Shown: positions 33,192 through 52,588 of the stretch, piece by piece
Numbering within the stretch: the first letter of the stretch is position 1
Layout of the letters: each line of letters opens with the position of its first letter
Assembly (NCBI GenBank): GCA_038061755.1
Contig: JBBTYN010000004.1
Span: forward strand, 3,198-67,197
Reading direction: 5' to 3'
Source of the DNA: Patescibacteria group bacterium
GTDB taxonomy: Bacteria; Patescibacteriota; Minisyncoccia; Phycocordibacterales; UBA9973
DNA: 64,000 nucleotides
Program-made: the position numbers and the translations under genes
The notes under the pieces: model-generated
Told to the model about the DNA's origin: nothing
Database searches by the model: none
The model's input: only the letters and a program-made list of their open reading frames with translations

Positions 33192-33986
33192 TTACCTCAT
33201 TTTCTCTCGCCTTTTTGACATTTCCTGATCTACGCCAGGATAGTGTCGTTTTACATCTTCGATAGCCTGGAGGATATGGAGAGCATGGGTACCGAACCTC
33301 TCTACGCGTGCCTCTTGGTTACTAGGGGAATACTCCCGAGTAAGGAGAGGAAGATTTCCGTGGTTTCCGTAGATTGCCGGGTGGGCCACCTCTACCAACT
33401 TTGGTCGAGGATTGCTAAGATACCAGAATTTCACCAAGTGTTCAAGGTGAATTCCGTACCTCTCCTGATTTCCATGCTCGAGAGCAAACTCGAAGCAATG
33501 GCGACGCATCATCCAGAAACCAGACAATGGATCAGTGGTCTCCCAGCCAGTTGCAACCTGCATCTGAGCAGTAACTGCTACGTTTAGGAAGTCCCGATCA
33601 AGTGGTACCTGAATCCGTTCTGAATCTGGATGATATCGTGATGCAATCACAATATCGGCACCATCCTTAATCTTTTCGAACATCGTTATGAGAAAATTCT
33701 CATCATGCTGTCCGTCAGCATCCATAGTGGCCACTAAATCATAACTACCTTTTACTGCTTCATGATAACCTCGACGAAGACTATTACCTATACCCTTATT
33801 CTCGTGGTTTTGTAAAACTATGCATTCATGTTTCCTACAAATCACAGCAGTATTGTCTAACGATCCGTCGTCGATCACAAGGATATCAGACAGTAAATAG
33901 TCTGCAACTTTTTGAAGCCTAGGTAAAAACTGATCAAGCGACGCTGCTTCATTACAAGCAGCAATAACTATCAACATTTTTAACAT
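33192..33986 (-). CDS. Family-2 glycosyltransferase (DPM1-like). It is markedly GC-rich and probably horizontally acquired.
   Basis: GT-A fold with a DxD motif (VIDDGSLD ... MDADGQHD). GC is about 50% versus about 30% in neighbouring genes. Confidence 0.75.
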   Translation of the reverse strand: MLKMLIVIAACNEAASLDQFLPRLQKVADYLLSDILVIDDGSLDNTAVICRKHECIVLQNHENKGIGNSLRRGYHEAVKGSYDLVATMDADGQHDENFLITMFEKIKDGADIVIASRYHPDSERIQVPLDRDFLNVAVTAQMQVATGWETTDPLSGFWMMRRHCFEFALEHGNQERYGIHLEHLVKFWYLSNPRPKLVEVAHPAIYGNHGNLPLLTREYSPSNQEARVERFGTHALHILQAIEDVKRHYPGVDQEMSKRREKMR

Positions 33987-34979: not shown

Positions 34980-37886
34980 ATGATTTCCCGAATATATGTG
35001 ACACCTAAAGGCAAAGCTAATTTCATTAATTCTTATTTAATTTCACATAAATTTGCAAGTGATCAAAGAGATAAAATCCTTAAAATAGCCAAGGCTTTAA
35101 CTAACCCCATCCTCGAAGAATTTTTTATAAATAAATTCCCAAAAACAAAGAAATTTACTTATGTAATAGAAATAGGTTTTAAACCTGGGGTCACAGACAA
35201 TGTCGGGCATACTGTAGAAGAAACTATAATTGATTTACTGGGTGTTGTCGGGTGTCCAACACCCGACAACATAGCAGTCTATACTTCTAAGATTTTTTTA
35301 GTTTCCAATTCTAAATTAGAAGAAGTAAAAAAGATTGCTCTCTCGCTTCACAATCCTCTCATTGAGCGTTCTTATGTCGCGAGTTTTGCTGAAATAAAAA
35401 AAAATGGCTTACCCTTAAAGGTTCCTAAGGTTATTTTAAAAAAGGCTATTCCTGTAATTAATGTTTCTCTTAATGTGTCTGATGAAGAACTTAAAAAAAT
35501 CGGAAAAGAGGGGATAATGGACGAAACAAATATTAGACGAGGTCCTTTGGCTCTTGATTTGACATCAATGAAAGTAATCCAAGAACATTTTAAAAAATTT
35601 AAAAGAGATCCGACCGATATTGAGCTGGAGTCTCTTGCGCAGACTTGGTCTGAACATTGTAAACATACTATTTTTGCAAATCCTATTGACGACATCAAAG
35701 ACGGTTTATATAAAACATACATAAAAAGCGCAACAAATCTAATCAGAAAAAATAAAGGCAAAAATGATTTTTGTATTTCTGTATTTTCTGATAATTCTGG
35801 AGGAATAATTTTTGATAAAGATTATTTAATAACGCATAAAGTTGAAACACACAACAGCCCTTCAGCCTTAGATCCATTTGGAGGTGCTATCACAGGTATT
35901 GTGGGTGTAAATCGAGACACGATAGGTTTTGGCTTAGGTGCTAAACCAGTAGCTAATGTTTATGGTTTTTGTTTTGGAAACCCAGAAGATAAAAGCTTAC
36001 TTTTTCGCGACAAAAATTTAACACAAAAAATGCTTTCACCAAAAAGAATAATGGAAGGGGTGGTAAAAGGTATAAATGTAGGAGGAAACTGTTCCGGAAT
36101 ACCGACTCTTTCTGGTTTTGTTCATTATGATGATAGATATAGGGGCAAGCCTCTAGTTTTTGCTGGCACAGTCGGATTAATTCCAAGAAAAATACAAGGA
36201 AAATTATCACACAAAAAACAGGCACAAGTTGGAGATTATATCGTTGTTGTTGGCGGAAGAGTAGGGCTTGATGGTATTCATGGGGCAACTTTTTCTTCTG
36301 TGGTAATGGATTCAAGTTCCCCAGCGACCGCAGTGCAAATCAGTGACCCAATTACTCAAAAAAAATTAAGTGATGCAATAATTAAAGAAGCGCGTTATAT
36401 GAATTTATATAATAGTATTACTGATAATGGTGCTGGTGGAATTTCTTGTTCAGTTGCTGAAATGGCAAAAGAATGCGGGGGAGCAAAAGTTTTTTTGGAA
36501 AAAGTACCACTAAAATACCTGAGTCTTCGTCCATGGGAAATTTGGATTTCAGAATCACAAGAACGTATGACTTTATCGGTGCCAAAGAAAAAGTGGAGTA
36601 CATTCAAAAAATTAATGGAGAAAAGGGGAGTGGAAGCGACAGTAATAGGTGAATTTACAAATTCTAAAAAATGTATTGTAGAATATAGTGGTAAAAAAAT
36701 CATGGATATTGATATGGAATTTTTACATGAAGGACTTCCAAAACAACATTTAATTACTTCTTCAGTTATTTATAAAAATATTGAACCAATACTTGAAATA
36801 AAAAAATCTTTTACTGCAATTCTAGAAAAATTACTAAGTAATAAAAATCTTAGTGGATTTTCTTTTATTTCCGAACAATATGACCATGAAGTGCAAGGGT
36901 CTTCTGTTCTAAAACCACTTTCTGGGAGAGGTCGTATAAATACCGATGCACAAGTTTTTCAACCAGTTTTAAATTCAAATAAAGGAGTTATTTTGTCTTC
37001 TAGTACTTATCCTTCATATGGAGATATTAGCACTTATCATATGGCTTCTTGCGCGATAGATACTGCTATTAGAAATACTGTTTGTTCTGGTGGAACACTT
37101 TCGCATTTAGCAATTTTAGATAATTTTTGTTGGTGTTCATCCAATGACCCAAAACGTTTAGCGCAGTTAGTAGATTCAGTGAAAGCTTGTTATGAATATG
37201 CTGTAGGTTTTGGTACACCTTTTATTTCTGGCAAAGACAGTATGTTTAATGATTTTAAAGGTTATGATGAAAAAGGGGAGCCTATGGCTGTTTCTATACC
37301 ACCGACACTTCTTATTTCAGCGATCAGCGTTATGCCTGACTTAAATAAAACTGTTTCTCCAGAATTTAAAAAAATTGGCGATATAATTTATTTATTAGGA
37401 GAAACGAATGATGAACTTGGTGGGGGAGAATATTATAAAACACTTGGCGTTGTTGGTAGTAATGTACCAAAAGTAGATTTAAAGAAAAATATAAAAACTT
37501 ATCGCGCTTTAGAAAAAGCAATTCAAAAAGAATTAATAGCTTCGGCAATATCTGTAAATTCTGGCGGACTTGCAATAGCACTCGCCAAAGCCTGTGTGGG
37601 AGGAATGGTAGGTTGTAATGTTTCCCTAAAGAGCCAGATAGCGCCTAAGGCGCTATCTGTAGAAGTAAAATTATTTTCTGAAAGTCAGGGAAGAATTTTA
37701 GTTTCTGTTTCCCATCAAAATGTTGCTAAATTTGAGCAAATAACCGCTACTTTACCAAGGGTTACCCTTGGTAAAGTAATAAAAGATGGGAAATTTATAA
37801 TTACCAATGGTAAAAATAAAGTAGTAGAAACAAATATTAAAAAGTTGTATGATGCATACCATAAATTTTCTAACTCACAAAAATGA
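34980..37886 (+). CDS. purL: Phosphoribosylformylglycinamidine synthase, a PurS-like N-terminal domain and linker fused to a PurL synthetase. The glutaminase is encoded separately downstream.
   Basis: PurS-like segment VIEIGFKPGVTDNVGHTVEETI, then PTDIELESLAQTWSEHCKHTIF and the AIR-synthase-related FGAM domains. 968 aa. Confidence 0.85.
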   Translation: MISRIYVTPKGKANFINSYLISHKFASDQRDKILKIAKALTNPILEEFFINKFPKTKKFTYVIEIGFKPGVTDNVGHTVEETIIDLLGVVGCPTPDNIAVYTSKIFLVSNSKLEEVKKIALSLHNPLIERSYVASFAEIKKNGLPLKVPKVILKKAIPVINVSLNVSDEELKKIGKEGIMDETNIRRGPLALDLTSMKVIQEHFKKFKRDPTDIELESLAQTWSEHCKHTIFANPIDDIKDGLYKTYIKSATNLIRKNKGKNDFCISVFSDNSGGIIFDKDYLITHKVETHNSPSALDPFGGAITGIVGVNRDTIGFGLGAKPVANVYGFCFGNPEDKSLLFRDKNLTQKMLSPKRIMEGVVKGINVGGNCSGIPTLSGFVHYDDRYRGKPLVFAGTVGLIPRKIQGKLSHKKQAQVGDYIVVVGGRVGLDGIHGATFSSVVMDSSSPATAVQISDPITQKKLSDAIIKEARYMNLYNSITDNGAGGISCSVAEMAKECGGAKVFLEKVPLKYLSLRPWEIWISESQERMTLSVPKKKWSTFKKLMEKRGVEATVIGEFTNSKKCIVEYSGKKIMDIDMEFLHEGLPKQHLITSSVIYKNIEPILEIKKSFTAILEKLLSNKNLSGFSFISEQYDHEVQGSSVLKPLSGRGRINTDAQVFQPVLNSNKGVILSSSTYPSYGDISTYHMASCAIDTAIRNTVCSGGTLSHLAILDNFCWCSSNDPKRLAQLVDSVKACYEYAVGFGTPFISGKDSMFNDFKGYDEKGEPMAVSIPPTLLISAISVMPDLNKTVSPEFKKIGDIIYLLGETNDELGGGEYYKTLGVVGSNVPKVDLKKNIKTYRALEKAIQKELIASAISVNSGGLAIALAKACVGGMVGCNVSLKSQIAPKALSVEVKLFSESQGRILVSVSHQNVAKFEQITATLPRVTLGKVIKDGKFIITNGKNKVVETNIKKLYDAYHKFSNSQK

Positions 37887-38635
37887 AAAAGCCAAAAATA
37901 ATAATAATATCAGGATATGGATTAAATTGCGAAGAGGAAACAAAATTCGCTTTTGAGTTGGCGGGAGGGATTGCAAATATAGTACATATCAATGATTTAA
38001 TAAAAAAACCGAAAATGCTTAAAGAATATCAAATCTTAGTTTTTCCTGGAGGATTTTCTTATGGAGATGATACTGGTAGTGGAAAAGCCTATGCGAATAA
38101 ATTTAAAAATCATTTAGCGAAAGAGTTAACAGAATTTTTATCTCGCAATACTCTCACAATTGGTATTTGTAATGGATTTCAAATTATAACTAATTTAGGA
38201 ATTTTGCCTGGCGGGCTTACCTATAATAAAAATGGAAAATATATAGACAGATGGGTTGATTTAGAAGCAAAAGGAAACAGTCCCTGGCTCAAAGGTATTA
38301 AAAAAATATCACTGCCAATAGCGCATGGCGAAGGACATTATGTTATTTCCAAAAAAGAATACAAAAAAATGAGAAAAAATAAAGAAATTGCTTTTGTTTA
38401 TACAAATGGAGAAATTTGTAAGTTTCAAAATCTTGAAAAAAACCCAAACGGATCAGAATATGACATCGCAGGAGTTTTAGCATATAATGGCAGAGTGCTA
38501 GGTATGATGCCACATCCAGAACGTGCAATGTTTTCGCACCAAAGTCCAATATGGCAGATGGATAAGAATGTTCAAAAAGAGGGGGTAGGATTACAGATTT
38601 TTAAAAACGCAATTAATTATTTTTTAAATTCATGA
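37883..38635 (+). CDS. purQ: Phosphoribosylformylglycinamidine synthase glutaminase subunit.
   Basis: Class-I glutamine amidotransferase motif GICNGFQ and an HPE triad region. Confidence 0.85.
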   Translation: MKKPKIIIISGYGLNCEEETKFAFELAGGIANIVHINDLIKKPKMLKEYQILVFPGGFSYGDDTGSGKAYANKFKNHLAKELTEFLSRNTLTIGICNGFQIITNLGILPGGLTYNKNGKYIDRWVDLEAKGNSPWLKGIKKISLPIAHGEGHYVISKKEYKKMRKNKEIAFVYTNGEICKFQNLEKNPNGSEYDIAGVLAYNGRVLGMMPHPERAMFSHQSPIWQMDKNVQKEGVGLQIFKNAINYFLNS

Positions 38636-40029
38636 GCGAACTAAAAGAAAAATGTGGAATCGTAGGAATATACGGTAAAGATTTACCTATTTCTCGGTTA
38701 GCTTTTTTTGCTTTATTTGCATTACAACACAGAGGACAAGAAGCATCAGGCATCACCACTAATGATGGAAAAAAATTTCGTACTCATAAAGGCGCAGGAC
38801 TCGTATCTCAAGTATATACAGAAAAAACAATAAAAAAACTGACAGGGTATATAGCCATAGGGCACAATAGATACTCCACTTCCAAAGGGGGAGCACTTCA
38901 TCATGCTCAGCCAGTTGTAAACAAGGATGCTTCTTTTGCCTTAGCGCATAATGGCAACTTACCAAGTATAAAAGCATTAGAAAATTTTCTTTCTTCAAAA
39001 AAAATATTAAAAAAAGATCGTAATGACTCAGAACTTATAGCTGATGCTATAGATTTTTATATAAAAGAGGGTAACTCACTACCAAAATCTATTGAAAAAG
39101 CTTTTCCTTTATTTACTGGGTCTTTTTCTTTAATAATGATGAGTAAAGATACCTTAGTTGCTGTGCGAGACACTTATGGAATGCGTCCACTTGCGATAGG
39201 GAAACTTAATAAAGGTTATGTTATAGCTTCAGAAACATGCGCAATCCAAACTATCGGCGCAACATTTTTAAGAGAAGTAAAACCAGGAGAAATGATTATT
39301 ATAAATAAGGCTGGAATAAAAAGTATACAGTTAGCGCCATCAAATCCAAAACATGACATATTTGAATATGTTTATTTCGCTCGACCAGACAGCTCACTAA
39401 ATGGTAAATTAATTTATGAAGTCAGAAAAAACTTTGGAAAAGCACTTGCTCATGAGTTTAAGAAAAAAGTCGACATTATTGTACCTGTGCCTGATACAGC
39501 AATGCCTGTTGCCTTAGGGTATAGTCAAGCATCTGGCATTCCAATAGAAATGGCTTTGGTGAAAAATCGCTATGTCCATAGAACTTTTATTGAACCCGAT
39601 CAAAAATCTCGCCGGAATAGTGTTGCGCTTAAACTTATACCACTTCCACAAATTTTAAAAGGTAAAAAAATAGTAGTGATAGATGATTCTATAGTTAGGG
39701 GACACACGTGTAAAAAATTAGTTAAAACGTTTTTTAAAGCAGGCGCCAAAGAAGTGCATCTTTTGATCTCTTCTCCACCTATCCGTTATCCAGATTTTTA
39801 TGGTATGGACACACCTAATCAAAATGAATTAATTGCATCATATAAAACAGTAGAGGAAGTTCGTAAATTCATGGGAGCTACATCACTACATTATCTTTCA
39901 CTTGAAGGTTTAATAAAAGCTATTGGCTTACCTAAAGATAAATTATCCACATCATGCTTTACAGGTATTTACCCTATTGATTTAAAAGAACGAAAAAGTG
40001 AAGTACGATACGATGTCTCAACAAAATAA
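38632..40029 (+). CDS. purF: Amidophosphoribosyltransferase.
   Basis: Ntn-hydrolase N-terminus MSELKEKCGIVGIYG and a PRTase domain. Confidence 0.9.
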   Translation: MSELKEKCGIVGIYGKDLPISRLAFFALFALQHRGQEASGITTNDGKKFRTHKGAGLVSQVYTEKTIKKLTGYIAIGHNRYSTSKGGALHHAQPVVNKDASFALAHNGNLPSIKALENFLSSKKILKKDRNDSELIADAIDFYIKEGNSLPKSIEKAFPLFTGSFSLIMMSKDTLVAVRDTYGMRPLAIGKLNKGYVIASETCAIQTIGATFLREVKPGEMIIINKAGIKSIQLAPSNPKHDIFEYVYFARPDSSLNGKLIYEVRKNFGKALAHEFKKKVDIIVPVPDTAMPVALGYSQASGIPIEMALVKNRYVHRTFIEPDQKSRRNSVALKLIPLPQILKGKKIVVIDDSIVRGHTCKKLVKTFFKAGAKEVHLLISSPPIRYPDFYGMDTPNQNELIASYKTVEEVRKFMGATSLHYLSLEGLIKAIGLPKDKLSTSCFTGIYPIDLKERKSEVRYDVSTK

Positions 40030-40633
40030 ACTAAAATTAGTTATATTAATTTCTAATACTGGTACAGGTACCAATCTAAAAGCTATAATTGATGAAGTTA
40101 ATTCTGGTACAATTAAAGCTGAGATTTGTGCGATAATTTCAGATACAAAAGAAGCTCAAGGACTAGAACATGCGCGAAAAAATAATTTAAAAATTGAAAT
40201 TTGTGAAGCCAAAGAAGACCTATTGTCACTTTTAAATAAAATAAGTCCAAATTATATTTGCCTAGCTGGCTGGAAACAAATTATTACAGACGAAGTAATT
40301 TTGGCTTTTCCAAATAAAATTTTAAATTTGCATCCTGGCTTAATTCCAGACATAATTAATGAAAGTGTAAAAAATCCTGATGACACAGAAGCTCTTTGGA
40401 ATAAAGGAATGATGACCATTAAAGCGATCCAGAATTTCTTAGATAAAAAAGCCACCTTCGCTGGTTCTAGTGTTCATTTTTTAACTTTAGAATTTGATTT
40501 TGGTCCTGTGCTGGGAAGAACTTTTGAAAAAATTGAAGATAATGATGATATTGAATCTTTATATGGAAGACTAAAGAAAAAAGAAAATAAGTTATATGTA
40601 GAAGTATTAGAAAAATTGTGTCAAAATAAATAA
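40013..40633 (+). CDS. purN: Phosphoribosylglycinamide formyltransferase.
   Basis: Formyltransferase fold (LVILISNTGTGTNLKAI ... NLHPGLIP). Confidence 0.8.
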   Translation: MSQQNKLKLVILISNTGTGTNLKAIIDEVNSGTIKAEICAIISDTKEAQGLEHARKNNLKIEICEAKEDLLSLLNKISPNYICLAGWKQIITDEVILAFPNKILNLHPGLIPDIINESVKNPDDTEALWNKGMMTIKAIQNFLDKKATFAGSSVHFLTLEFDFGPVLGRTFEKIEDNDDIESLYGRLKKKENKLYVEVLEKLCQNK

Positions 40634-40634
40634 T

Positions 40635-41930
40635 ATGCAAAAACAAAAAATTTTAATAATAGGTTCCGGTGGAAGGGAACATGCTATAGGGTGGAAAGTA
40701 GCGCAATCACCCAAGGCGGGACAAATTTTCTTTGCGCCTGGAAATGGGGGGACAAGTAAAATAGGAATTAATGTAGATATAAAAGCAAATGATATAAAAG
40801 GATTGTTAGAATTTGCAAAAAAAGAAAAAATAGATTTAACATTGGCTTTACCTGACGACCCACTTGCGCTTGGAATTGTAGACGAATTTAAAAAAAATAA
40901 TTTACGTATTTTTGGCCCGACAAAACAAGCTAGTAAAATTGAATGGTCTAAAGCTTTTTCAAAAAATTTTATGCATCAACACAATTTATTAACAGCAAAA
41001 TTTGAAATATTTAATAATTTTGAAAAAGCAAAAAAATATATATCAGAACAATCTTTCCCAGTTGTTATAAAAGCAAGTGGTTTAGCATTGGGAAAAGGTG
41101 TAATCATTTGCCAAAATCTAGAGGAAGCGAATGAAGCGCTAGAAAATATGTTTATAAAAAAAGTTTTTGGGGATGCTGGCAGTATTGTAGTAATAGAAGA
41201 ATTTTTAACTGGTCCAGAAATTTCTATTCATGCATTTTCAGATGGGAAAAATTACAAAATGTTTCCAACTTCTCAGGACCATAAAAAGATAGGAGAAAAT
41301 AATACTGGTTTAAACACTGGTGGAATGGGCACGATCGCTCCGCTCCCTTTTGTGACTGATAAACTTTTAAAAAATATTGAAAAAGATATTGTTATTCCAA
41401 CTATTGAATCAATGAATAAAGATGATAATCCATTTTTAGGTGTGATTTATCCAGGATTAATGCTAACAAAAGATGGCCCAAAAATTCTTGAATACAATGC
41501 GCGTTTTGGCGACCCAGAAACTCAAACATATATGCGACTTTTAGATACAGATATTTTGGATATTTTTAATGCATGTGTTGATGAAAAACTTGATCAAATA
41601 GAGATAAATTGGAGTAAAAAATTCGCTTGCACAATAGTGCTTGCTTCAGGAGGATATCCAGAAAATTATGAAAAAGGTAAAGTAATTTCAGGTATTGAAG
41701 AAGCAGAAATGCAATCTGATATAGTTGTCTTCCACGCTGGCACAAAAATTGTGAGGCAAGACCTCACAACTAATGGCGGGCGAGTATTAGGAGTTTCAGC
41801 TATTGGAAATACTCTAGAAGAAGCACTACAAAAAGCTTACAAAGCTATAGAAAAAATTTCTTTTGAAGGTATGCAATACCGCAAAGATATCGGTCAATCT
41901 GCATTAAAAATACCTATTTATCCCAATTAA
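40635..41930 (+). CDS. purD: Phosphoribosylamine--glycine ligase.
   Basis: ATP-grasp GARS domains (ILIIGSGGREHAIGWK). Confidence 0.9.
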   Translation: MQKQKILIIGSGGREHAIGWKVAQSPKAGQIFFAPGNGGTSKIGINVDIKANDIKGLLEFAKKEKIDLTLALPDDPLALGIVDEFKKNNLRIFGPTKQASKIEWSKAFSKNFMHQHNLLTAKFEIFNNFEKAKKYISEQSFPVVIKASGLALGKGVIICQNLEEANEALENMFIKKVFGDAGSIVVIEEFLTGPEISIHAFSDGKNYKMFPTSQDHKKIGENNTGLNTGGMGTIAPLPFVTDKLLKNIEKDIVIPTIESMNKDDNPFLGVIYPGLMLTKDGPKILEYNARFGDPETQTYMRLLDTDILDIFNACVDEKLDQIEINWSKKFACTIVLASGGYPENYEKGKVISGIEEAEMQSDIVVFHAGTKIVRQDLTTNGGRVLGVSAIGNTLEEALQKAYKAIEKISFEGMQYRKDIGQSALKIPIYPN

Positions 41931-43263
41931 AGAATTGTTCTCGATCTGGTCCTGTACCAACGGAGATGATTTTTATATTTAGGTCAGAAAGTTTATTTTT
42001 TATATATTTCAAATAAGAGATAAGTTCTTTGGAAACCTTTTTTTTATTATTCACCCCATAATTTTTCTCACCCCAGCCATTTATATTATCTGTTACCACT
42101 TCTGTCACCTGATTTAAATAAAGTGGAAATTCTTTTAGAGTTTTTGTTTTATTTTTTTCTTTAGTTTTATATCCAGTTACAACTTTTATTTTATCACTCA
42201 AACAAATATCAGCTTTATTGATAAAAATTCTATTAGCGCCAGAAAGTTCTATGGCATAACGTAAAGCAAATAAATCAAGCCAACCACACATTCGCGGACG
42301 GCCAGTGGTCGATCCAAATTCCTGCCCAGCATTTTGAAAAAGTTTCTCTAAAGTTTCGTCTTTTATTCTAGCTGGAAAACTTCCACCACCTACTTTTGTT
42401 GTGTAAGCTTTTATCACACCATATATATTCCGTATGTAAGTATGAGGAACACCCAAGCCTAAACATACACTAGCTGGTAGGGTATTAGAACTTGTCACAT
42501 TTGGATAATCTCCAAAATCAATATCAAGCATCACAGCCTGCGCGCCTTCAGCTAAAATATTTTTTCCTTCTTTCAGCTTTTTTTGTATTAAAGAAGATAA
42601 AATACAAATCTTAAGTTTCTTTATTTCTTTTACAGCTTTCCACCATTTTTCCTTTGCTTCTTTTATTTTTTTAAAATCAATTTCAAAACCATATTTTTCT
42701 TGATACATCTTTAAAACATTAATATGAAATTCTGACAAAATTTCTTCTTTTTGTTTAAAATCTGGTGACAATATATCGCCAATTAAAAACGCTCTTCTTG
42801 CTCGGACATCACTATAAGCTGGGCCTATGCCCCTTAAAGTAGTTCCTACTTTTGTTTCTAATTTTCCACTCAATTTACCTCTGCGATATTCCTCTGCTTG
42901 ATCTAAAAATGGATGCAAATATGAGACTAACTTTGCGCGGTTTGAAATATAAAGACGAGAAATAACATTGAACCCCAGACTTTTTAATTGGGAAATTTCT
43001 TCGACTAAAGATACTGCATCCACCACAACACCATTACCGATATATAATTCTATATCCTTATGGAGACAACCAGACGGAAGAATATGTCCAATAAAAGTAG
43101 TCTTGCCTAATTTAAGAGTGTGTCCTGCATTTGCCCCTCCTTGAAAACGCGCTACCCCGGAATAAATACCAGAAGACAAAAGTTGATCTATATTTTTACC
43201 TTTTCCTTCATCTCCCCACTGAAGACCTACAACCACATCTATAAAACCATTTTTATTATTCAT
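41914..43263 (-). CDS. purA: Adenylosuccinate synthetase.
   Basis: GDEGKGK P-loop and GGANAGHT motif. Confidence 0.9.
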   Translation of the reverse strand: MNNKNGFIDVVVGLQWGDEGKGKNIDQLLSSGIYSGVARFQGGANAGHTLKLGKTTFIGHILPSGCLHKDIELYIGNGVVVDAVSLVEEISQLKSLGFNVISRLYISNRAKLVSYLHPFLDQAEEYRRGKLSGKLETKVGTTLRGIGPAYSDVRARRAFLIGDILSPDFKQKEEILSEFHINVLKMYQEKYGFEIDFKKIKEAKEKWWKAVKEIKKLKICILSSLIQKKLKEGKNILAEGAQAVMLDIDFGDYPNVTSSNTLPASVCLGLGVPHTYIRNIYGVIKAYTTKVGGGSFPARIKDETLEKLFQNAGQEFGSTTGRPRMCGWLDLFALRYAIELSGANRIFINKADICLSDKIKVVTGYKTKEKNKTKTLKEFPLYLNQVTEVVTDNINGWGEKNYGVNNKKKVSKELISYLKYIKNKLSDLNIKIISVGTGPDREQFFNWDK

Positions 43264-43277
43264 ATAAAAAATAAAAA

Positions 43278-44780
43278 TTACTGTCCTACACTATAATTAG
43301 GAGACTCTTTGGTAATTATAACATCATGAGGATGACTTTCTTTTATACCAGAATTAGTAATCCTGACAAATCTTGCTTTATCTTGAAGAGTTTTTATATT
43401 TTCCGCTCCGCAATATCCCATACCAGCTCGAAATCCTCCCACAAGCTGATAAATTACTTCTGAAAGTCCGCCCTTAAAAGAAACTCTACCAACAATTCCT
43501 TCTGGCACAAGTTTTTTTATGTCATCTTCCATATCTTGAAAATATCTATCTTTAGAACCTAGTTGCATAGCCTCAATAGAACCCATCCCGCGATAAGTTT
43601 TATATTTTCTAGATTCAAAAATGATTACCTCCCCAGGAGATTCTTCAACTCCAGCAAATAAGGAACCAACCATAACAGAACTTGCTCCTGCTGCTATTGC
43701 TTTAGTAATATCTCCTGTGTGTTTTATGCCACCATCAGCGATAACTGGCACACCTGAACCCTTTATAGCTTTCGCTACCTCATACACAGCAGAAAATTGA
43801 GGATAGCCTACACCAGCAATTATCCGAGTAGTACAAATTGAACCTGGGCCAATACCAACTTTTACGGCATCTGCTCCAGCTTTAACTAAAGCTAACGCCG
43901 CTTCTTCTGTAGCGATATTCCCAACAATAACTTCTAATTTAGGAAATTCTTTTTTTATTTTCTTCAACATTTCAATTACTCCTTTTGAGTGACCATGAGC
44001 AGTATCAATAACTATTACATCCACTCCATTTTGCACAAGTGCTTTAACTCTCTCTCCTGTATCATTTGATACTCCTATCGCTGCGCCAACACGCAAACGA
44101 CCTAAATTATCTCGAGAAGATTTTGGGCGAGACCTTACTTTCATTATATCTTTATAAGTAATTAGACCAATAAGTCTGTTTTTATTATCAACTAAAGGCA
44201 ATTTTTCAACTTTATATTCTGTTAAAATCTTTTCAGCTTCTTTTAAATCCGTGCCGATACTACCAGTTATTAAGTTTGTTTTTGTCATCACTTCTCCCAC
44301 AGAAAGTTCTAAATTTTCTTGAAATCTCAAATCACGATTAGTTAAAATTCCCTTTAATTCCATATTTTTACCAACTATTGGAATTCCGCCAATTTTATTT
44401 TCTTTCATTATGGTTAAAGCTTCACGAAGCAAAGCTTCTTCCGTTAAAGTTATAGGGTCATGAATCATCCCGCTCTCAGAACGCTTTACCTTACGCACTT
44501 CAGCTGTCTGTTTTTCAATAGTCATATTCTTATGAATAATTCCTATCCCTCCCTCTTGAGCCATTGCTATTGCCATATCTCCTTCAGTTACCATATCCAT
44601 AGCAGCAGAAACAATCGGAACACTGAGTGTTATTTTTTTAGTAAGCTTTGAAGAAATATCAACATCGCGAGGTAAAACTTCAGAGTATTGTGGCACAAGT
44701 AAAACATCGTCATACGTCAAGCCTTCTTTAAAATTTTCTCGCTGTATTTTTATTTTGTTTTTTTCTACTTTCAAAGCCAT
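43278..44780 (-). CDS. guaB: IMP dehydrogenase.
   Basis: TIM barrel with a CBS pair; active-site loop [11 protein letters not shown]. Confidence 0.95.
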
Positions 44781-44805
44781 AATATATCGTGTATACTACC
44801 ATACT

Positions 44806-46362
44806 ATGAATGATATACAAATCCTTATTGTGGACTATGGGTCGCAATATACACTAATTATCGGTAGAACTTTGCGGGAACTCGGAGTACGAAGCATAAT
44901 ATTACCACTAAACAAAGTTGACGGGTGGCTTAAAAATAATATACCTAAAGCGGTCATTCTCTCTGGTAGTAATTGGAGCGTTCACAACGAAGGTGCGCCA
45001 GAGCTTCCTAAAATACTTAATGCTACTCTCAAAAATAATAACAAAAAATATTTAATTCTAGGAATCTGTTATGGTATGCAACTTCTAGCGCACAAACAGG
45101 ACGGCATCGTCGCAAGACCACTTGATCATCGTGAATATGGACCAGCTACAGTAACATTAAATACAACACATCCTCTTTTTAATGGTGTTCCAAAAAAGAC
45201 CAAAGTCTGGGCAAGCCATGGAGACACTGTCACCAAACTTCCTAAAGGTTTTACTTCTATCGCCACCTCAGGTGGAATTGCTGCTATGAGCAACAAAGAC
45301 AATAATATATTTGGAATCCAATTTCATCCAGAAGTTGTTGATACCAAAGAAGGAAAAAAAATATTACAGAATTTTTTAAATATGGCTAATTGTAAAAAAG
45401 ATTGGAATCCGATAAATTTAATTCATGAAATTCAAAAAGAAGTATTGGATATTGTAGGAGAAAAACCTGCCCGCCGTGGCGGGGAAAAAGTTATCTTAGG
45501 AGTTTCAGGTGGAGTAGATTCCACTACTTTAGCTGCAATCCTTGCACCAGTTTTAGGGCGTAGGCTCATTTGTATAGCCATAGATACTGGGGGACTAAGG
45601 CAAGGTGAGATAATAGAATTAAAAAGTAATACTAAAAGTGCCGGCATAACAAGTCTTAAAATAATTTCTGCTGGAGATAAATTTATAAAAAATATTAGTA
45701 CCACAATTGATGGGGAAGAAAAACGCGCGAAATTTCGTAATGTATATAAAAGAATATTTGAAGAACAAATAAAAAAAGCGGGCGCAAAGTTTATAGTTCA
45801 AGGAACTTTAGCAACAGATATTATTGAGAGTGGAAAAATAGGGGAGTCAGCAATGATTAAGACTCATCACAATGTAGGTCTTAATTGGAAAGTAGAAGAT
45901 TTGCATCCTTTTAGAAATTTATTTAAATATGAAGTACGAGAATTAGCTCGCGTACTAAAACTTCCAAAGGTCATCTCTGAGCGCAATCCCTTTCCTGGTC
46001 CTGGTTTGTTTTTAAGAATTGTTGGCACGCCAGTCTCAAAAGAAAAACTTAATCTTGTACGAGAAGCGGATAAAACTGTAGCAGATATATTAAAAAAATA
46101 TGATATCGACAAAGATATTTCCCAACTCATTGTCGCCCTTCTTGGTGTTAATTCTGTCGGCGTAAAAGGCGACGAACGTGTTTATGGACACTCACTCGCT
46201 ATTCGTGCTGTGCAAACAGTAGATTTTATGACAGCCAAAGGCTATTATTTTCCGGAAGTGGTAATGGAAGAAATTACAAATACTCTCACTAAACATAAAG
46301 ACATAGTTCGTGTATTTTTTGACATGACCCCTAAACCTCCAGCAACAACCGAATTTGAGTAA
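44806..46362 (+). CDS. guaA: GMP synthase (glutamine-hydrolysing).
   Basis: GATase N-terminus (ILIVDYGSQYT...GICYGMQ) and an ATP-PPase SGGVDS motif. Confidence 0.95.
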   Translation: MNDIQILIVDYGSQYTLIIGRTLRELGVRSIILPLNKVDGWLKNNIPKAVILSGSNWSVHNEGAPELPKILNATLKNNNKKYLILGICYGMQLLAHKQDGIVARPLDHREYGPATVTLNTTHPLFNGVPKKTKVWASHGDTVTKLPKGFTSIATSGGIAAMSNKDNNIFGIQFHPEVVDTKEGKKILQNFLNMANCKKDWNPINLIHEIQKEVLDIVGEKPARRGGEKVILGVSGGVDSTTLAAILAPVLGRRLICIAIDTGGLRQGEIIELKSNTKSAGITSLKIISAGDKFIKNISTTIDGEEKRAKFRNVYKRIFEEQIKKAGAKFIVQGTLATDIIESGKIGESAMIKTHHNVGLNWKVEDLHPFRNLFKYEVRELARVLKLPKVISERNPFPGPGLFLRIVGTPVSKEKLNLVREADKTVADILKKYDIDKDISQLIVALLGVNSVGVKGDERVYGHSLAIRAVQTVDFMTAKGYYFPEVVMEEITNTLTKHKDIVRVFFDMTPKPPATTEFE

Positions 46363-46377
46363 TCTAATCAAAATAAA

Positions 46378-47925
46378 ATGATAAAAGAAAATAAAAAAAT
46401 AAAATCAGCTTTAATTTCAGTTTTTAATAAAGATGGACTTGAAGAAATTGTAAAACTTCTTCATAGGCATAATGTAAAAATTATTTCTACTGGTGGTACG
46501 GCAGAATTTATTCGCAAACTTAGTGTACCAGTAACTGAAGTAGAAGAAATCACAAATTATCCTGCCTTATTTGGTGGTAGAGTTAAAACACTGCAACCAC
46601 AAATTTTTGGCGGGATTTTAAATCGCCGAGATAATGTAAATGATATAAAAGAAAAAGTGGAGCACAAAATAGAAGACATTGATTTGGTAATCGTAGACCT
46701 ATATCCATTTGAAGAAACTCTAGCTAGTGGAGCTAATGAGGAAGAAATTATTGAAAAAATAGACATCGGCGGAGTATCTTTAATTCGCGCAGCGGCGAAA
46801 AATTTTAATGATGTCGTAGTGATTCCTTCAAAACATCAATATGAAGAATTAAAAAATATTTTAAAAATAAGTGACACTACGACATTAGAACAACGCAAAA
46901 AATTTGCAGGCAATGCATTTGAAGTGACAAGTATTTACGATAGTGCTATTCGTGGGTATTTTCAACCTTTGCCAAAGATGCCCTTTGACATATTGATGTC
47001 AAAGGGCATCTTTGGCAATATCCCGCTGCGCTATGGAGAAAACCCACACCAAAGAGCAAAATTTATAGGTAATTTAGAAGAGAGTTTTATACAACTTCAT
47101 GGAAAAGAGCTTTCTTATAATAATTTGATGGATACTGAAGCTGCCATTATGACCGTTTATGATTTTAGAGATCCTGCTTTCGCTATTGTTAAACATATGA
47201 ATACTTGCGGTCTGGCTGTTAGGGAAGAAGGACATTTATTTGAGGCGTATCAAGCAGCTTATAATGCCGACCCACTTTCAGCTTTTGGTGGAGTATTAAC
47301 AGCTAATAGAATTATTGAGGAAGACATCGCTAAACTTATCAAGGAACAAAAACTTTTTATAGAAGTAATTATTGCGCCAGATTTTTCAAAAGAAGCTTTA
47401 AATATTTTAATGGAGAAAAAGGATTGTAGAATTTTGAGGTGGAAAAAACCAAACCTTCCGCTAAAACAAAACAAGACTTGCTTTACTGGAATTCTGTCGC
47501 AAGATCGAGATACTCATATAGAAAGTGAGACAGATTTAAAAGTGACAACTAAGCGTGAACCAACAGAGCAAGAGAAAAAGGATTTACTCATTGCTGCAGT
47601 AATAACGAAACATTTAAAATCTAATGCTATCGCTTTAGTAAAAGATGGAACACTTCTTTCAATGGGTTGTGGACAAACTTCACGCATTGATGCATTAAAA
47701 CAAGCTATTGATAAAGCCAAAAAATTTAAATTTTCACTCAAGGGTGCTGTTATGTCATCTGAAGCATTTTTCCCATTTCCTGATTGCGTAGAGATGGCAG
47801 GGGAAGAAGGTATAACTGCTGTACTTCATCCTGGAGGTTCAAAGAATGATCAAACATCCATAGATATGGCAAATAAATACAAAATGGCAATGGTAACAAC
47901 TGGCTTTAGACATTTTAAGCATTGA
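46378..47925 (+). CDS. purH: Bifunctional AICAR transformylase / IMP cyclohydrolase. It carries an in-frame copy of the palindromic element at 46971..47016.
   Basis: MGS-like N-terminal domain and an AICARFT domain (LRYGENPHQ). Confidence 0.9.
   Translation: MIKENKKIKSALISVFNKDGLEEIVKLLHRHNVKIISTGGTAEFIRKLSVPVTEVEEITNYPALFGGRVKTLQPQIFGGILNRRDNVNDIKEKVEHKIEDIDLVIVDLYPFEETLASGANEEEIIEKIDIGGVSLIRAAAKNFNDVVVIPSKHQYEELKNILKISDTTTLEQRKKFAGNAFEVTSIYDSAIRGYFQPLPKMPFDILMSKGIFGNIPLRYGENPHQRAKFIGNLEESFIQLHGKELSYNNLMDTEAAIMTVYDFRDPAFAIVKHMNTCGLAVREEGHLFEAYQAAYNADPLSAFGGVLTANRIIEEDIAKLIKEQKLFIEVIIAPDFSKEALNILMEKKDCRILRWKKPNLPLKQNKTCFTGILSQDRDTHIESETDLKVTTKREPTEQEKKDLLIAAVITKHLKSNAIALVKDGTLLSMGCGQTSRIDALKQAIDKAKKFKFSLKGAVMSSEAFFPFPDCVEMAGEEGITAVLHPGGSKNDQTSIDMANKYKMAMVTTGFRHFKH
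46971..47016. repeat. Nested palindromic element, copy 4, variant B. It lies inside the purH ORF at the inter-domain linker and is translated as LPKMPFDILMSKGIFG.
   Basis: gccaaagatgccctttgacat-attg-atgtcaaagggcatctttggc with 21-bp perfect arms. The ORF is left open. Confidence 0.9.
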
Positions 47926-47974
47926 CATTTCAATAAAAGTGTGACACAATGCTCAGAGAATAGCGATTTGAGAT

Positions 47975-48000
47975 AATCTCAGAAATGAGATTTTATTTTT
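47975..48000 (+). terminator. Intrinsic terminator after purH.
   Basis: aatctca-gaaa-tgagatt followed by ttttattttt. Confidence 0.6.
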
Positions 48001-48028
48001 GTTCTACATAATAAAAAAGGAGAGTGAA

Positions 48029-48613
48029 ATGAAAAAATTATTTTTAACGGTGGTGGTTGTGGCCATATTAGCATTTTCAATTTCTTGCCGGGCGGACGAA
48101 GTGTCACTAGTGAGAATTAATGTTGTCAAAAAAACCGCTGGATTTGTCGCTGGATTTGCGTCCGGATTAGGTTTTCACGAGCTTGGACATGAAGCCATGG
48201 CTAAACTTGAAGGAGCGGAAATGCACTGGAGTGATACGAACTGGAGTACCAATGCATCCCCAGCGACCTTGCGAAACATTGCCATTGCCGGTTTCGGGGC
48301 TCAAATATTGAGCACTGAAGTTATGCTGGGAACTAACATCATCCCAAAAGACAACTCGTTTGTCTTGGGATGGTTGACTTTCAACATACTGAATACCGTA
48401 CAGTATGTTGTAACAGATAATTTGCGAAATGGAGGTTACGGAGATTTTGAGACTCTCCGTAATAACGGAGGAAATACGGATTTGGTAAAAATCGGACTAT
48501 TGGTGCACGCAGTATTGAGCGCCTACCGACTCTATAAAAATCCAAAATTTATTCCGTATGTCAGCGCGACCAAGGATGAGTTTGTCCTTGGACTAGCATG
48601 GAAATGGGATTAA
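48029..48613 (+). CDS. Secreted or lipoprotein-like protein with an HExxH motif (putative Zn-metallopeptidase-like). It is GC-rich and inserted between purH and purE.
   Basis: Strong SD AAAGGAG. Signal peptide with a Cys (MKKLFLTVVVVAILAFSISC) and a HELGHE motif. GC is about 43% versus about 32% locally. Confidence 0.6.
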   Translation: MKKLFLTVVVVAILAFSISCRADEVSLVRINVVKKTAGFVAGFASGLGFHELGHEAMAKLEGAEMHWSDTNWSTNASPATLRNIAIAGFGAQILSTEVMLGTNIIPKDNSFVLGWLTFNILNTVQYVVTDNLRNGGYGDFETLRNNGGNTDLVKIGLLVHAVLSAYRLYKNPKFIPYVSATKDEFVLGLAWKWD

Positions 48614-48709
48614 TCTTAACTATCAAACAGCCAGTACACTCGAAAGGAGGAAAATGTATTGGCTGTTTTAATTTGTTTTATATTGAAAAAATGATAAGAT
48701 AAAATTACT

Positions 48710-49246
48710 ATGAAAAATCTAAAAGTTGGTATAGTTATGGGTTCAGATTCAGATTTGGAAATAATGACGGAAGCGGCAAAAATTCTTGAAGAATTTAATG
48801 TGCATTATGAAATGACTGTAGCTTCTGCGCATCGAAGTCCTGATTTAGTACATAAATACACAACCAGTGCAAAATCTCGCGGATTGAAAATTATTATTGC
48901 TGGTGCAGGTGGAGCAGCGCATTTAGCAGGAGTTATCGCATCACTGACGACTCTTCCTATTATCGGTGTCCCAATTAAATCAAAATATTTAAAAGGACTT
49001 GATTCTTTATTTTCTACTGTCCAAATGCCTCCAGGTGTACCAGTAGCCACTGTCGGAATTAATGCAGGGAAAAATGCTGGACTTTTAGCTTTACAAATAC
49101 TTGCAACAGGTGATAAAAATTTAGAAAAAAAATTAGTTGCCTATAAAAATAAAATGAGTAGTGAAGTGAAAGCAAAAGGAGAAAAACTTTTAAAAGTTGG
49201 ATATAAAAAATATCTATCTGCGCAGGAAAGTTTAGAAAATAAATAA
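48710..49246 (+). CDS. purE: PurE (N5-CAIR mutase or class II AIR carboxylase). No purK is found in the window.
   Basis: [14 protein letters not shown] motif. Confidence 0.9.
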
Positions 49247-49247
49247 G

Positions 49248-50288
49248 ATGAGCGATTTGTATAAACAAGCTGGTGTAAACATAGAAGCTGGTAATGAAGT
49301 CGTAAGACGAATTAAAAAAAAAGTGGCAAGTACTCACACTAGTGCTGTACTTACAAATATCGGACACTTTGGCGGACTATATGATTTAGGAGAAATTATT
49401 AAAAATTACAAACATCCAATCTTAGTTCAAAGTATTGATGGCGTTGGGACAAAACTCTTGGTGGCTAAAATGGCTAACAAGTATGACTCTGTGGGTGAAG
49501 ATATCGTCGGACATAGTTGTGGAGACATTTTAGCAATGGGTGCACGACCTATTACATTTCTAGATTATGTCGCTAATGAAACGCTTATACCAGAAGAAAT
49601 GGAACAAATGGTTTCTGGTATGGTCAAAGCTTGCAAAGAAGCAGGAGTCGCAATTGTTGGTGGTGAAACCGCTGAAATGCCTGGAGTATATATGAAAGGT
49701 GAACATGATATTGCTGGATGCATTACTGGTATAGTTGAAAAAGATAAAATAATAACTGGGGAAAAAATTAAAGAAGGGGATATTTTACTAGGTCTCGCTT
49801 CTTCAGGACTGCATACAAATGGATTCTCTCTTGCTAGAAAATTAATTTTTGAAAAAGCAGGGCATACTATAGGTGAAAAAATTCCTGAACTTGATATGAC
49901 TGTAAGAGAAGCACTTTTACAAGTTCACACGAATTACACTAAGCCAATCTTAGAAATACTTGATTCCGACATTGAAATAAAAGGCATAGCACATATAACC
50001 GGCGGAGGATTTATTGAAAATATTCCACGAATACTTCCTAAAAATCTTGATGCAGAAATTAAAAAAAGGACATGGCCAATCCTTCCAATTTTTCCTTTTA
50101 TGCAAAAAATTGGAAATGTTAGTGAACAGGAAATGTATACCGCCTTTAATATGGGTATTGGAATGGTTTTAGTGTCTCCAGTATCAGAAAAAATAAAAAT
50201 CACAAAAATTTTTAAAAAGTATCCAGATTATAAAATCTATGAAATTGGTAAAATTATTAAAGGTTCAGGCAAAGTACAACTAAAATAA
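49248..50288 (+). CDS. purM: Phosphoribosylformylglycinamidine cyclo-ligase (AIR synthetase).
   Basis: PurM N-terminus YKQAGVNIEAGNE and core. Confidence 0.9.
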   Translation: MSDLYKQAGVNIEAGNEVVRRIKKKVASTHTSAVLTNIGHFGGLYDLGEIIKNYKHPILVQSIDGVGTKLLVAKMANKYDSVGEDIVGHSCGDILAMGARPITFLDYVANETLIPEEMEQMVSGMVKACKEAGVAIVGGETAEMPGVYMKGEHDIAGCITGIVEKDKIITGEKIKEGDILLGLASSGLHTNGFSLARKLIFEKAGHTIGEKIPELDMTVREALLQVHTNYTKPILEILDSDIEIKGIAHITGGGFIENIPRILPKNLDAEIKKRTWPILPIFPFMQKIGNVSEQEMYTAFNMGIGMVLVSPVSEKIKITKIFKKYPDYKIYEIGKIIKGSGKVQLK

Positions 50289-50295
50289 AATATTT

Positions 50296-51225
50296 ATGAA
50301 CATTTTAGAAAAAACAGATTTCAAAAACTTGGGAGAAAAATATACTGGTAAAGTGAGAGATGTATACAGCCAAAAAGATAAAGTTATTATGATTTCTACA
50401 GACCGATATTCAGCTTTTGACCGTAATTTAGCGTTAATATCGTGCAAGGGACAAGTATTAACCCAAGTCAGTAAATTTTGGTTTGAGAATACAAAAGATA
50501 TTGTAAAAAATCATGTCCTAGATTTTCCTGATCCAAATGTGGTGATAGGTAAAAAATGTAAAGTAATACCAATAGAATGGGTAGTACGCGGATACATCAC
50601 AGGAATTACAAGCACATCTCTTTGGACACATTACAAAGAAGGCAAGAGAAACTTTGGTAATTTTGTTTTAACTGAAGGACTTAAAAAAAATCAAAAACTA
50701 GCAGAAATAGTTTTTACTCCGACAACAAAAGATGAACACGATAGGCCGATAACTCCCAAAGAAATTGTGACTGAAGGAATTCTCCCGGAGGAGATGGTAA
50801 TAGAATTAGAAAGAATTGCAAAAACTTTATTTAAAAGAGGACAAGAAATAGCTCTTGCTCATGGATTAATTTTAGTAGATACAAAATATGAGTTTGGTTT
50901 AGATGAAAATAATGAAATAATTTTGATTGATGAAATTCATACCCCGGATTCTTCTAGGTATTGGCAAGCTGATTCATATCAAGCTAGAATAGACCAGGGT
51001 TTAGAGCCAGAGAATTTTGATAAAGAATTTTTACGTTTATGGTTTAAGGAAAATTGCGACCCATATAAAGATGAGATAATACCTGAGGCACCACACGAGT
51101 TAGTTCTTGAATTATCTAGAAGATATATTAAAATTTGTGAACAAATTACTGGAATTCCTTTTATGGTTGAAACTGGAGATATTTCCAAACGAATAGAAAA
51201 TAATTTAAAAAAATATGAAATCTAA
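50296..51225 (+). CDS. purC: SAICAR synthetase, long form (309 aa).
   Basis: GKVRDVY motif and a SAICAR synthetase fold, longer than the ~237-aa bacterial form. Confidence 0.85.
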   Translation: MNILEKTDFKNLGEKYTGKVRDVYSQKDKVIMISTDRYSAFDRNLALISCKGQVLTQVSKFWFENTKDIVKNHVLDFPDPNVVIGKKCKVIPIEWVVRGYITGITSTSLWTHYKEGKRNFGNFVLTEGLKKNQKLAEIVFTPTTKDEHDRPITPKEIVTEGILPEEMVIELERIAKTLFKRGQEIALAHGLILVDTKYEFGLDENNEIILIDEIHTPDSSRYWQADSYQARIDQGLEPENFDKEFLRLWFKENCDPYKDEIIPEAPHELVLELSRRYIKICEQITGIPFMVETGDISKRIENNLKKYEI

Positions 51226-52588
51226 AATTTTAGAAAACACAATAAATCCATTAGACGGAAGATATTTTGATAAAACTCGGGTACTTGTGCCATATTTTTC
51301 AGAAGAGGCATTAATGAAATATCGAATAAGGGTGGAAACAGAATACCTAATTGCTTTATCTGAAAAGAAAATACTTCGCAAATTTACGCCAAATGAAATA
51401 AAAATAATTAGAAATCTTTATGAAAAATTTAACGAAAACTCATACAGAAAAATAAAAAAAATAGAAGCAACAACCAACCATGATGTAAAAGCAGTTGAAT
51501 ATTTAATAAAAAAAGAACTTTCCAAAACATCTTTAAAAGACAGCATTGAGTGGGTACATTTTGCCCTCACTTCCGAGGATACGAACAATCTGGCTTATGC
51601 TTTGATTTTATCTGATTCCTTAGATCAAGTTATTATTCCAGAAATAAATAAAATAATTTCTGAATTAAATGGTCTTGCAAAAAAATACAAAAATTTACCA
51701 ATGCTTGCTCGAACCCATGGGCAACCAGCATCACCAACTACTTTTGGAAAAGAAATGAGAGTTTTCGGAGCTCGTATAGAAAAAAGAGTTACTGGTCTAA
51801 AAAGTATAAAAATACAAGCTAAATTAGATGGAGCAAGCGGAAACTGGAATGCTCATACAGTAGCTTATCTAAATATAAATTGGATTGAATTCAGTAAAAA
51901 ATTTATTGAAAATTTTAATAAAGATCGCTCACAAAAACTCGAAGCAAATTTAATTACCACTCAGATTGAATGTCACGATAGTTATGTCGCAGTTTTCGAT
52001 GCATTAAGAATGATAAACACAATTCTATTAAACTTCAATCAAGACATGTGGAGATATATTTCTGATAATTGGATAACTCAAAAAACAAAGGAAGGGGAGA
52101 TCGGTTCTTCAACCATGCCACACAAAATAAATCCGATTGATTTTGAAAATAGTGAAGGGAATCTCGGTCTCGCAAATGCATTTTTTGAATTTTTTGCTAG
52201 AAAATTACCAATCTCACGTCTTCAACGCGATCTTTCAGATTCTACTGTAGAACGCGCTTTTGGCACGGCTTTTGGGCATTCATATTTATCTTATGTTTCT
52301 CTCCTCAAAGGATTAAGTAAAATCAATATAAATGAAATAAAGATAAAAGAGGATTTAAACAATCATCCAGAAGTAATTACTGAAGCTATTCAAACCATCT
52401 TGCGACGCGAAGGTGTAGCTATGCCATATGAAAAATTAAAAGAATTAACCCAAGGGAAACAAATTACACTTCTTGATATTCATAATTTTATTAATACGCT
52501 TGATGTAAGTGAAAAAATAAAAAAAGAACTTAAAAAAATTACTCCGGAAAATTATACCGGCCTTGCTTCAAAACTTGCTTCAAAGTAA
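51215..52588 (+). CDS. purB: Adenylosuccinate lyase.
   Basis: Fumarase/ASL family with the signature region GSSTMPHKINP. Confidence 0.9.
   Translation: MKSKILENTINPLDGRYFDKTRVLVPYFSEEALMKYRIRVETEYLIALSEKKILRKFTPNEIKIIRNLYEKFNENSYRKIKKIEATTNHDVKAVEYLIKKELSKTSLKDSIEWVHFALTSEDTNNLAYALILSDSLDQVIIPEINKIISELNGLAKKYKNLPMLARTHGQPASPTTFGKEMRVFGARIEKRVTGLKSIKIQAKLDGASGNWNAHTVAYLNINWIEFSKKFIENFNKDRSQKLEANLITTQIECHDSYVAVFDALRMINTILLNFNQDMWRYISDNWITQKTKEGEIGSSTMPHKINPIDFENSEGNLGLANAFFEFFARKLPISRLQRDLSDSTVERAFGTAFGHSYLSYVSLLKGLSKININEIKIKEDLNNHPEVITEAIQTILRREGVAMPYEKLKELTQGKQITLLDIHNFINTLDVSEKIKKELKKITPENYTGLASKLASK

Follow-up and report, generated by a model that had tools for sequence, protein, structure and literature searches.

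A probable acquired cassette carrying a putative minimal M50-like zinc protease gene lies between purH and purE in a groundwater Patescibacterium

Between purH and purE of a groundwater Patescibacteria metagenome-assembled genome (MAG) lies a gene for a 194-residue protein with a HELGHE motif, the subject of this report. The window, that is, the whole 64,000-nt stretch of DNA that was analysed (assembly GCA_038061755.1, contig JBBTYN010000004.1), has a GC content of 33%. On its plus strand, purH (46378–47925; AICAR formyltransferase/IMP cyclohydrolase; PF01808, E 1e-98, and the NCBIfam purH model) is the last gene of a guaA-purH unit. The HELGHE open reading frame (ORF) follows, also on the plus strand, at 48029–48613 with an ATG start and its motif at residues 50–55, and purE (48710–49246, plus strand; Pfam AIRC, E 4e-65; TIGR01162) opens a purE-purM-purC-purB unit. 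The ORF list and the Pfam and NCBIfam matches confirm the coordinates, motif and neighbours given in the original prediction. We propose that a ~750-bp autonomous cassette (~47922–48683), composed of a promoter, a 5′ untranslated region (UTR) with a strong Shine–Dalgarno sequence (SD), the 194-codon ORF and a terminator, would have been acquired horizontally by this Patescibacteria lineage and would have landed in a pre-existing gap between the two pur units.

The candidate promoter overlaps the end of purH. This sigma-70-type site (47922–47950, plus strand) reads TTGACA, 17 nt, then a TG-extended CACAAT (TTGACA-17-TGaCACAAT), and is the best match in a 4-kb scan (10/12, with TG). The TGA stop of purH (47923–47925) falls inside its −35 hexamer; the purH C terminus, GFRHFKH, is identical in a syntenic Candidatus Nomurabacteria MAG (L022), where the stop is TAA instead. 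A 23-nt block of the promoter, TTGACATTTCAATAAAAGTGTGA, recurs with two substitutions 5′ of the nearest homologue, which shares 72% amino-acid identity and is carried by an unrelated contig (L101). The pattern TTGACATTT[C/T]AATAAAAGT[G/A]TGA is thus kept at 21 of 23 positions, and elsewhere in the fetched loci the block was found only in copies of the window's own locus.

The predicted 5′ UTR, ~75–80 nt long (47951–48028, plus strand), contains a hairpin and T-run at 47970–48004 and then the SD, AAGGAG at 48017–48022, separated from the ATG by a 6-nt spacer. The original prediction had read the hairpin as a terminator. Hairpin (47970–47999) and T-run do exist, but the hairpin has little stability (−9.1 kcal/mol, z −1.6), which 17 of 200 shuffles equal, and because it lies 3′ of the best promoter-like site it sits within the cassette's own 5′ UTR. 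A UTR of ~60–130 nt and a strong SD are shared by every family member examined. Within the UTR, two mutually exclusive small hairpins could form at 47970–47992 (GAGA/TCTC, or TCTCA/TGAGA plus the T-run), and the equivalent segments of L101 (~310–345) are GGGA/TCCC and TCCCA/TGGGA, a compensatory change. These two sequences, with their very short stems, hint at an attenuator-like switch.

Downstream of the ORF, the predicted terminator (48625–48683, plus strand) consists of a 14-bp stem (48625–48638/48655–48668), which is 93% complementary, followed by a U-rich tract, TTTTAATTTGTTTT; UUUUAAUUUGUUUU lies directly 3′ of the stem. The hairpin starts 12 nt past the stop codon and is stable (−21.4 kcal/mol, z −5.05), with none of 200 shuffles folding as well. 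A stem–loop and U-tract after a stop codon is the textbook form of an intrinsic (Rho-independent) terminator, as which we would read this element; a simple terminator scan misses the hairpin at 48625–48668 because of its loop-size rule. The layout is shared, since all homologues examined are monocistronic, with a TTGACA promoter, UTR, strong SD, ORF and strong intrinsic terminator.

Three independent signals mark the gene as foreign: its composition, its translation signals and the comparison with relatives. The ORF has a GC content of 0.432, against 0.33 for the window, and at third codon positions (GC3) the value is 0.426, compared with 0.216 ± 0.05 for the 53 other window ORFs (z +5.1). The excess lies in third positions. 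GC at first and second positions (GC1 z 0.7, GC2 z 1.5) stays within 1.5 standard deviations, so amino-acid composition is not the explanation. GGAG or GAGG occurs at −18 to −4 in only 3 of the 54 window ORFs, and a strong SD precedes just two genes, the HELGHE ORF and a glycosyltransferase gene, which are also the two GC3 outliers. The foreign look, the GC of about 43% and the strong SD, all remarked on from the letters alone, are thereby borne out.

Apart from the HELGHE gene, GC3 departs markedly only in the glycosyltransferase (family 2; 33192–33986, minus strand; PF00535, E 6e-24; 0.40 vs 0.22). Its SD reads AAGGAGG, and it too was probably acquired horizontally. At many native operon-first starts in the window, a TGnTAnnnT −10 box ends 4–9 nt ahead of the ATG, an arrangement of leaderless type. 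Gene starts with this box and no SD are found, for example, at 441 (minus strand), 1982, 12370, 21128, 22205 (minus strand), 26900, 48710, 56845 and 57255 (minus strand), which suggests that leaderless mRNAs are widespread in this Patescibacterium.

The comparison with relatives points the same way. L022 has the gene order of the window, namely purA and guaB on the minus strand, then guaA, purH, a gap, purE, purM, purC, purB, a small ORF and PBP2, and its pur-region proteins are 71–80% identical to those of the window; no homologue of the HELGHE gene occupies the site. We considered whether its 415-bp gap holds a decayed copy of the gene and rejected this, as only the last ~30 nt, the purE promoter, resemble the window. 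The gene is also absent from all six Patescibacteria pur loci inspected, so that the comparison with relatives proposed at the outset came out in favour of an insertion. Within the population, the identical protein is encoded on 19 contigs from several samples and stands between purH and purE at every place listed, the remaining places having been grouped with these as similar, which indicates that the insertion is fixed there.

Homologues and the window gene (X) occur singly, in six or more distinct gene contexts: rpsR-X-efp, ksgA..-X-uvrD, nrdD-X-ftsZ, uvrA-X-rmuC, Cas4-like-X-HhH-GPD and, in the window, purH-X-purE. Together with the predicted promoter and terminator, the deviant composition and the absence from a syntenic relative, these unrelated contexts characterize an autonomous cassette. 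The earlier suggestion of a self-contained insertion that brought its own expression signals is upheld by GC3, SD, the absence from L022, the varied contexts and the shared promoter block. Two further loci deserve mention. In a Thermodesulfobacteriota MAG (L104, 2258–5669), a distant homologue lies 800 bp from, and divergent to, split purH-like genes (AICARFT_IMPCHas), a proximity that is probably coincidence. In one sample (L020, 28–1020), an insertion sequence (IS) with an rve-family transposase replaced nrdD directly 5′ of the homologue's promoter; this is a separate event, a local rearrangement beside the cassette in another lineage.

The encoded protein belongs to a family that annotation has largely passed over. 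A word-indexed search returned 25 clusters of 193–245 amino acids, without any Pfam domain and, where named, called 'hypothetical protein'; two NCBI-named clusters among them are labelled Patescibacteria. An exhaustive profile search extended this to 407 clusters at E ≤ 1e-3, including a Desulfobacterota group of 220–240 amino acids and a Ghiorsea-type group. H50, H54 and D139 are invariant among the 25 close relatives, with E51 and E97 conserved in at least 90%. Across 64 diverse members, G42, H50, H54 and D139 are invariant and E51, G88, E97, G114, Y126 and R167 reach at least 90%. The motif has the extended form HExGHxxxAxxxG, which contains the zinc-binding motif of PF02163 (Peptidase_M50). 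Just before the HExxH helix, a tandem 12-nt duplication at 48136–48159 (CGCTGGATTTGT/CGCTGGATTTGC) encodes AGFV/AGFA.

Homology to known proteases was found through intermediates. In Pfam searches, 16 of the 64 relatives match M50 (best E 6.8e-4) and seven match M50B. One protein (P0113) scores 31.3 bits against the M50B-like family PF13398, above the gathering threshold of 26, and bears the NCBI name 'M50 family metallopeptidase'; it is homologous over its full length to a profile of the window subfamily (A1; hhalign 99.1%). The same profile matches an alignment built from 14 PF13398-annotated proteins (A3) with a probability of 99.4% (hhalign E 8.7e-22, 157 columns), bringing HELGH, E97 and D139 into register. 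The original prediction had offered SprT/WLM, DUF4157 and other zincin folds as candidates. Peptidase_M50 is the only family that a Pfam scan at E ≤ 1 returns for the window protein, and none of those alternatives appears among the 64 relatives.

The window also encodes a classical RseP-type M50 protease of 384 amino acids (14757–15911, plus strand), with HEFGH near its N terminus, in a plus-strand run of tightly spaced ORFs (gaps of 1–35 bp). The HELGHE protein is consequently not the housekeeping site-2 protease (S2P) but an extra protein of the M50 superfamily. When the two were compared directly, hhalign aligned only the 20-residue motif at a probability of 52%, which by itself is no proof of homology. 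A PDB sequence search with the window protein and with profile A1 gave a match to the PsbY transmembrane helix only, which we regard as spurious, and a literature search returned nothing specific to this family.

An AF2 (AlphaFold2) model of the protein has a pLDDT (predicted local distance difference test) of 86.8. It comprises a helix at residues 2–17, a long HExxH-bearing helix (23–60), a beta-hairpin (65–74), helices at 78–101, 110–132, 138–145 and 150–170, and a C-terminal beta-hairpin. Judged against published S2P architecture, the succession of HExxH helix, hairpin, helix, short external loop, helix and Asp appears to mirror the core of RseP and MjS2P, and the model resembles the S2P core in fold. 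D139 is likely to be the third zinc ligand. We therefore describe the product as a putative divergent M50/M50B-like (S2P superfamily) zinc metalloprotease. It would have an N-terminal signal or anchor helix, the HExGHxxxAxxxG helix with H50, E51 and H54, a beta-hairpin, and three more helices with D139, and would most likely be a zinc endopeptidase, associated with the membrane, that cleaves a membrane or exported peptide.

Several results weigh against this interpretation, in both its parts. At the cassette borders we found no direct or inverted repeats, target-site duplication, IS or integrase beyond chance-level short matches. Searches of PHROGs, PADLOC and IMG/VR, tblastn against phages and plasmids, and a Foldseek search of BFVD gave no phage, plasmid, viral or defence relatives, and a phage or defence origin is accordingly unsupported. 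Among the homologue loci, none of the adjacent genes is conserved in a way that would hint at a substrate. In several other genomes, too, the family gene is somewhat higher in GC than the genes beside it, with a GC3 excess of up to +0.10–0.12, and some of the excess may be a property of the family itself. The promoter and terminator of the cassette are themselves predictions from sequence. For the protein, the score against Pfam M50 (PF02163) is 13.4 bits, below the cut-off of 27.2 (E 0.05), and covers the HExxH segment (model positions 2–30); PF13398 gives no match at E ≤ 1, and Foldseek against the PDB gives nothing significant (best E 0.23). D139 belongs to a G-[YF]-G-D motif where a short helix begins, not to the classical LDG or NxxPxxxxDG. 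On the Kyte–Doolittle scale, only residues 1–22 rise above 1.6, and the other helices peak at ~1.0 in 19-residue windows. This borderline hydropathy makes membrane embedding uncertain, with homology as its basis.

The hydropathy profile leads to the alternative that survives best, that the protein is an exported zincin, soluble or lipid-anchored outside the cytoplasm, or a non-catalytic metal-binding protein, and not an intramembrane protease of S2P type. Its N terminus resembles a signal peptide, as originally noted, and the helices that follow are only moderately hydrophobic. In the 25 members, the conserved feature is a small residue, any residue and Ala, then Asp or Glu, and the consensus A-x-A followed by D/E is typical of cleavage by signal peptidase I. 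A lipid anchor would use C20 in the sequence AFSIS-C20, where Cys follows small residues, which we take to be compatible with a relaxed lipobox; NCBIfam lipoprotein-signal models match weakly (E 0.012). Cys is, however, present in only 13 of the 25 members, so the lipoprotein assignment made originally finds no support in family conservation, and the N terminus is more likely a signal for signal peptidase I or an uncleaved first transmembrane helix than a lipobox. As to an exported zincin in general, the only relatives in sequence and fold are intramembrane M50 and M50B proteases, the order of structural elements would be that of the RseP/MjS2P core, and the helix at 110–129 consists of 20 uncharged residues and is the segment that matched the PsbY transmembrane helix, even though that match is itself spurious. 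On balance we regard the exported form as unlikely. Whether it is embedded in the membrane and active as a protease we consider evenly balanced.

A second alternative concerns the origin of the gene, which could be ancestral at this site and lost or replaced in relatives, its GC content and SD reflecting constraints intrinsic to the family rather than transfer. The GC of the family gene, above that of its flanks in most genomes examined, fits this, as does the stable synteny in some lineages (ksgA..-X-uvrD across uvrD identities of 73–100%, and nrdD-X-ftsZ) and the presence of small ORFs at the same spot in L022 and in another relative without the insert (L021). Yet at +0.21 (z +5) the GC3 excess of the window gene is roughly double the highest value from other genomes, and the SD-led layout with a long UTR is foreign to a window whose other genes lack SDs. 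There is no gene remnant in the L022 gap, none of the six relatives' pur loci has the gene, and the promoter block is held in common with a homologue in a different context. We think ancestry at the site improbable, and favour horizontal acquisition of the cassette.

The remaining question is how the cassette relates to purE. The original prediction held that it interrupts a contiguous pur series, and that a second strong SD with a 5-codon ORF (MYWLF; ATG at 48654, TAA ending at 48671) could form a leader re-coupling purE-purB expression. The purE start argues otherwise on both counts. Its promoter-like region (48684–48709, plus strand) contains TGATAAGAT at 48692–48700 and TAAAAT at 48700–48705, ends 4–9 nt before the ATG and lacks an SD. 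The −10-like box abuts the ATG, in the same layout as at other operon-first genes of the window, so that the start is, by its sequence, of leaderless type. The 26 nt preceding the ATG, aaTGaTAAGATAAAATtact, are conserved in L022 and L021 (90% over 30 nt), where purE likewise has no SD. In these relatives without the insert, a terminator and a gap of 330–415 bp precede purE (L022, 5586–6000; L021, 5668–5994). Since purE has its own promoter-like element after a terminator there, the purH-purE junction was already a boundary between two transcription units, apparently a variable one, and an element of this kind in front of the window's purE makes a re-coupling leader unnecessary. As in the relatives, purE would be transcribed from its own leaderless-type promoter directly downstream of the cassette.

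At the same spot 5′ of purE, L022 and L021 carry different small ORFs of ~51 and ~59 codons, closed by terminators of −24 and −15 kcal/mol, respectively; the L022 ORF is GC-rich (0.52 vs 0.41). The spot before purE may be a recurrent landing site for small genes.

The SD-like sequence of the mini-ORF, AAAGGAGG at 48643–48650, is real, perfect of its kind and, with the ATG, located 56 nt 5′ of purE, and the window has few AGGAGG sites (18, counting both strands). It nevertheless lies in the apical region of the terminator hairpin, the spacer to the ATG is only 3 nt, and the ATG and all five codons make up the 3′ arm of the −21 kcal/mol hairpin before its U-tract. Homologous cassettes have an equally strong terminator at the same position, unrelated in sequence and without such an ORF, and the upstream regions of purE in relatives, with their conserved promoter-like element, have no mini-ORF either. 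Combinations of AGGAGG, a start codon and a tiny ORF are found at several other places in the window, inside genes, which makes MYWLF no more than expected by chance. The host genes of the window are not SD-led, and Rfam searches of 34–54 kb and of the whole window returned three tRNAs only, with no riboswitch or leader. A translated leader or upstream ORF that regulates or couples purE-purB is for these reasons highly improbable; MYWLF, although present as a sequence, has by this reading no function of its own and is part of the cassette terminator.

The pur genes around the cassette are unusual in themselves. Patescibacteria usually lack nucleotide biosynthesis, and here a near-complete de novo purine pathway, together with guaA, guaB and purA, is clustered at 34980–52588. 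The order is purL-purQ-purF-purN-purD, purA and guaB on the minus strand, guaA-purH, and purE-purM-purC-purB. Similar clusters with shuffled gene order are found in MAGs labelled Nomurabacteria, Minisyncoccia, Parcubacteria and Saccharibacteria. Inside purH, a near-perfect palindromic hairpin (46965–47022) gives spurious microRNA-family matches on both strands in a permissive Rfam search.

Taken as a whole, an acquired cassette with a minimal M50/M50B-like protease and the mini-ORF as a terminator arm is in our judgement quite probable. Much the same confidence, a shade lower, attaches to its functional core, in which the acquired gene encodes a minimal zinc peptidase of the M50 superfamily, is transcribed on its own, ends before purE's native promoter and leaves pur expression unaffected. 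Through this reading, ~400 clusters of 'hypothetical proteins' that Pfam misses almost entirely gain a fold and a probable chemistry, that of a zinc protease of the M50 superfamily. It also provides a clean case of a reduced Patescibacteria (candidate phyla radiation) genome acquiring one gene horizontally, with signatures in GC3, SD usage and promoter/UTR style that can be read from sequence. Two misreadings are corrected along the way, the SD with its mini-ORF being a terminator and the "interrupted operon" having been two transcription units already. To a specialist, a poorly annotated new member of a known protease superfamily on a moron-like cassette will be unsurprising, and it opens no new kind of biology.

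A broader proposal, which we put forward as speculative and unlikely, is that an unannotated minimal S2P/M50B-like family (~170-residue core) is spreading in Patescibacteria, and into Desulfobacterota and Zetaproteobacteria, as bare promoter-UTR-SD-gene-terminator cassettes without recognisable mobile machinery. The gap upstream of purE would then be a recurrent landing pad (three relatives, three different small genes), and the cassette would bring SD-driven expression to a host in which the window's other genes have no SD and operon-first genes look leaderless. If so, the gene would confer a selectable, portable function at an episymbiont's cell envelope, for example immunity or the processing of peptides or bacteriocins.

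Among known systems, the cassette is reminiscent of the phage 'morons' familiar from lambdoid phage genomics, in which one gene of deviant composition, with its own promoter and terminator, stands between two units. It differs from them in lying in a chromosomal biosynthetic cluster rather than a prophage, and in having no integrase, IS or border repeats. Compared with the M50 site-2 proteases (MjS2P, 3b4r; RseP of E. coli, Aquifex and Kangiella; SpoIVFB of B. subtilis), the protein, at ~170 mature residues, is far shorter and lacks PDZ and CBS domains. Its Asp is in G-x-G-D instead of LDG or NxxPxxxxDG, its helices are less hydrophobic, its N terminus is signal-like, its score is below Pfam gathering, and no anti-sigma or pro-sigma substrate gene is linked to it. 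We know of no member of the window subfamily or of the PF13398 group with a tested function. Nearly all members of the window subfamily, the window protein included, fall below the PF13398 threshold, and identity to the positive, Ghiorsea-type subfamily (190–210 amino acids) is ~28%; with that subfamily, the protein nonetheless shares full-length homology, size and architecture.

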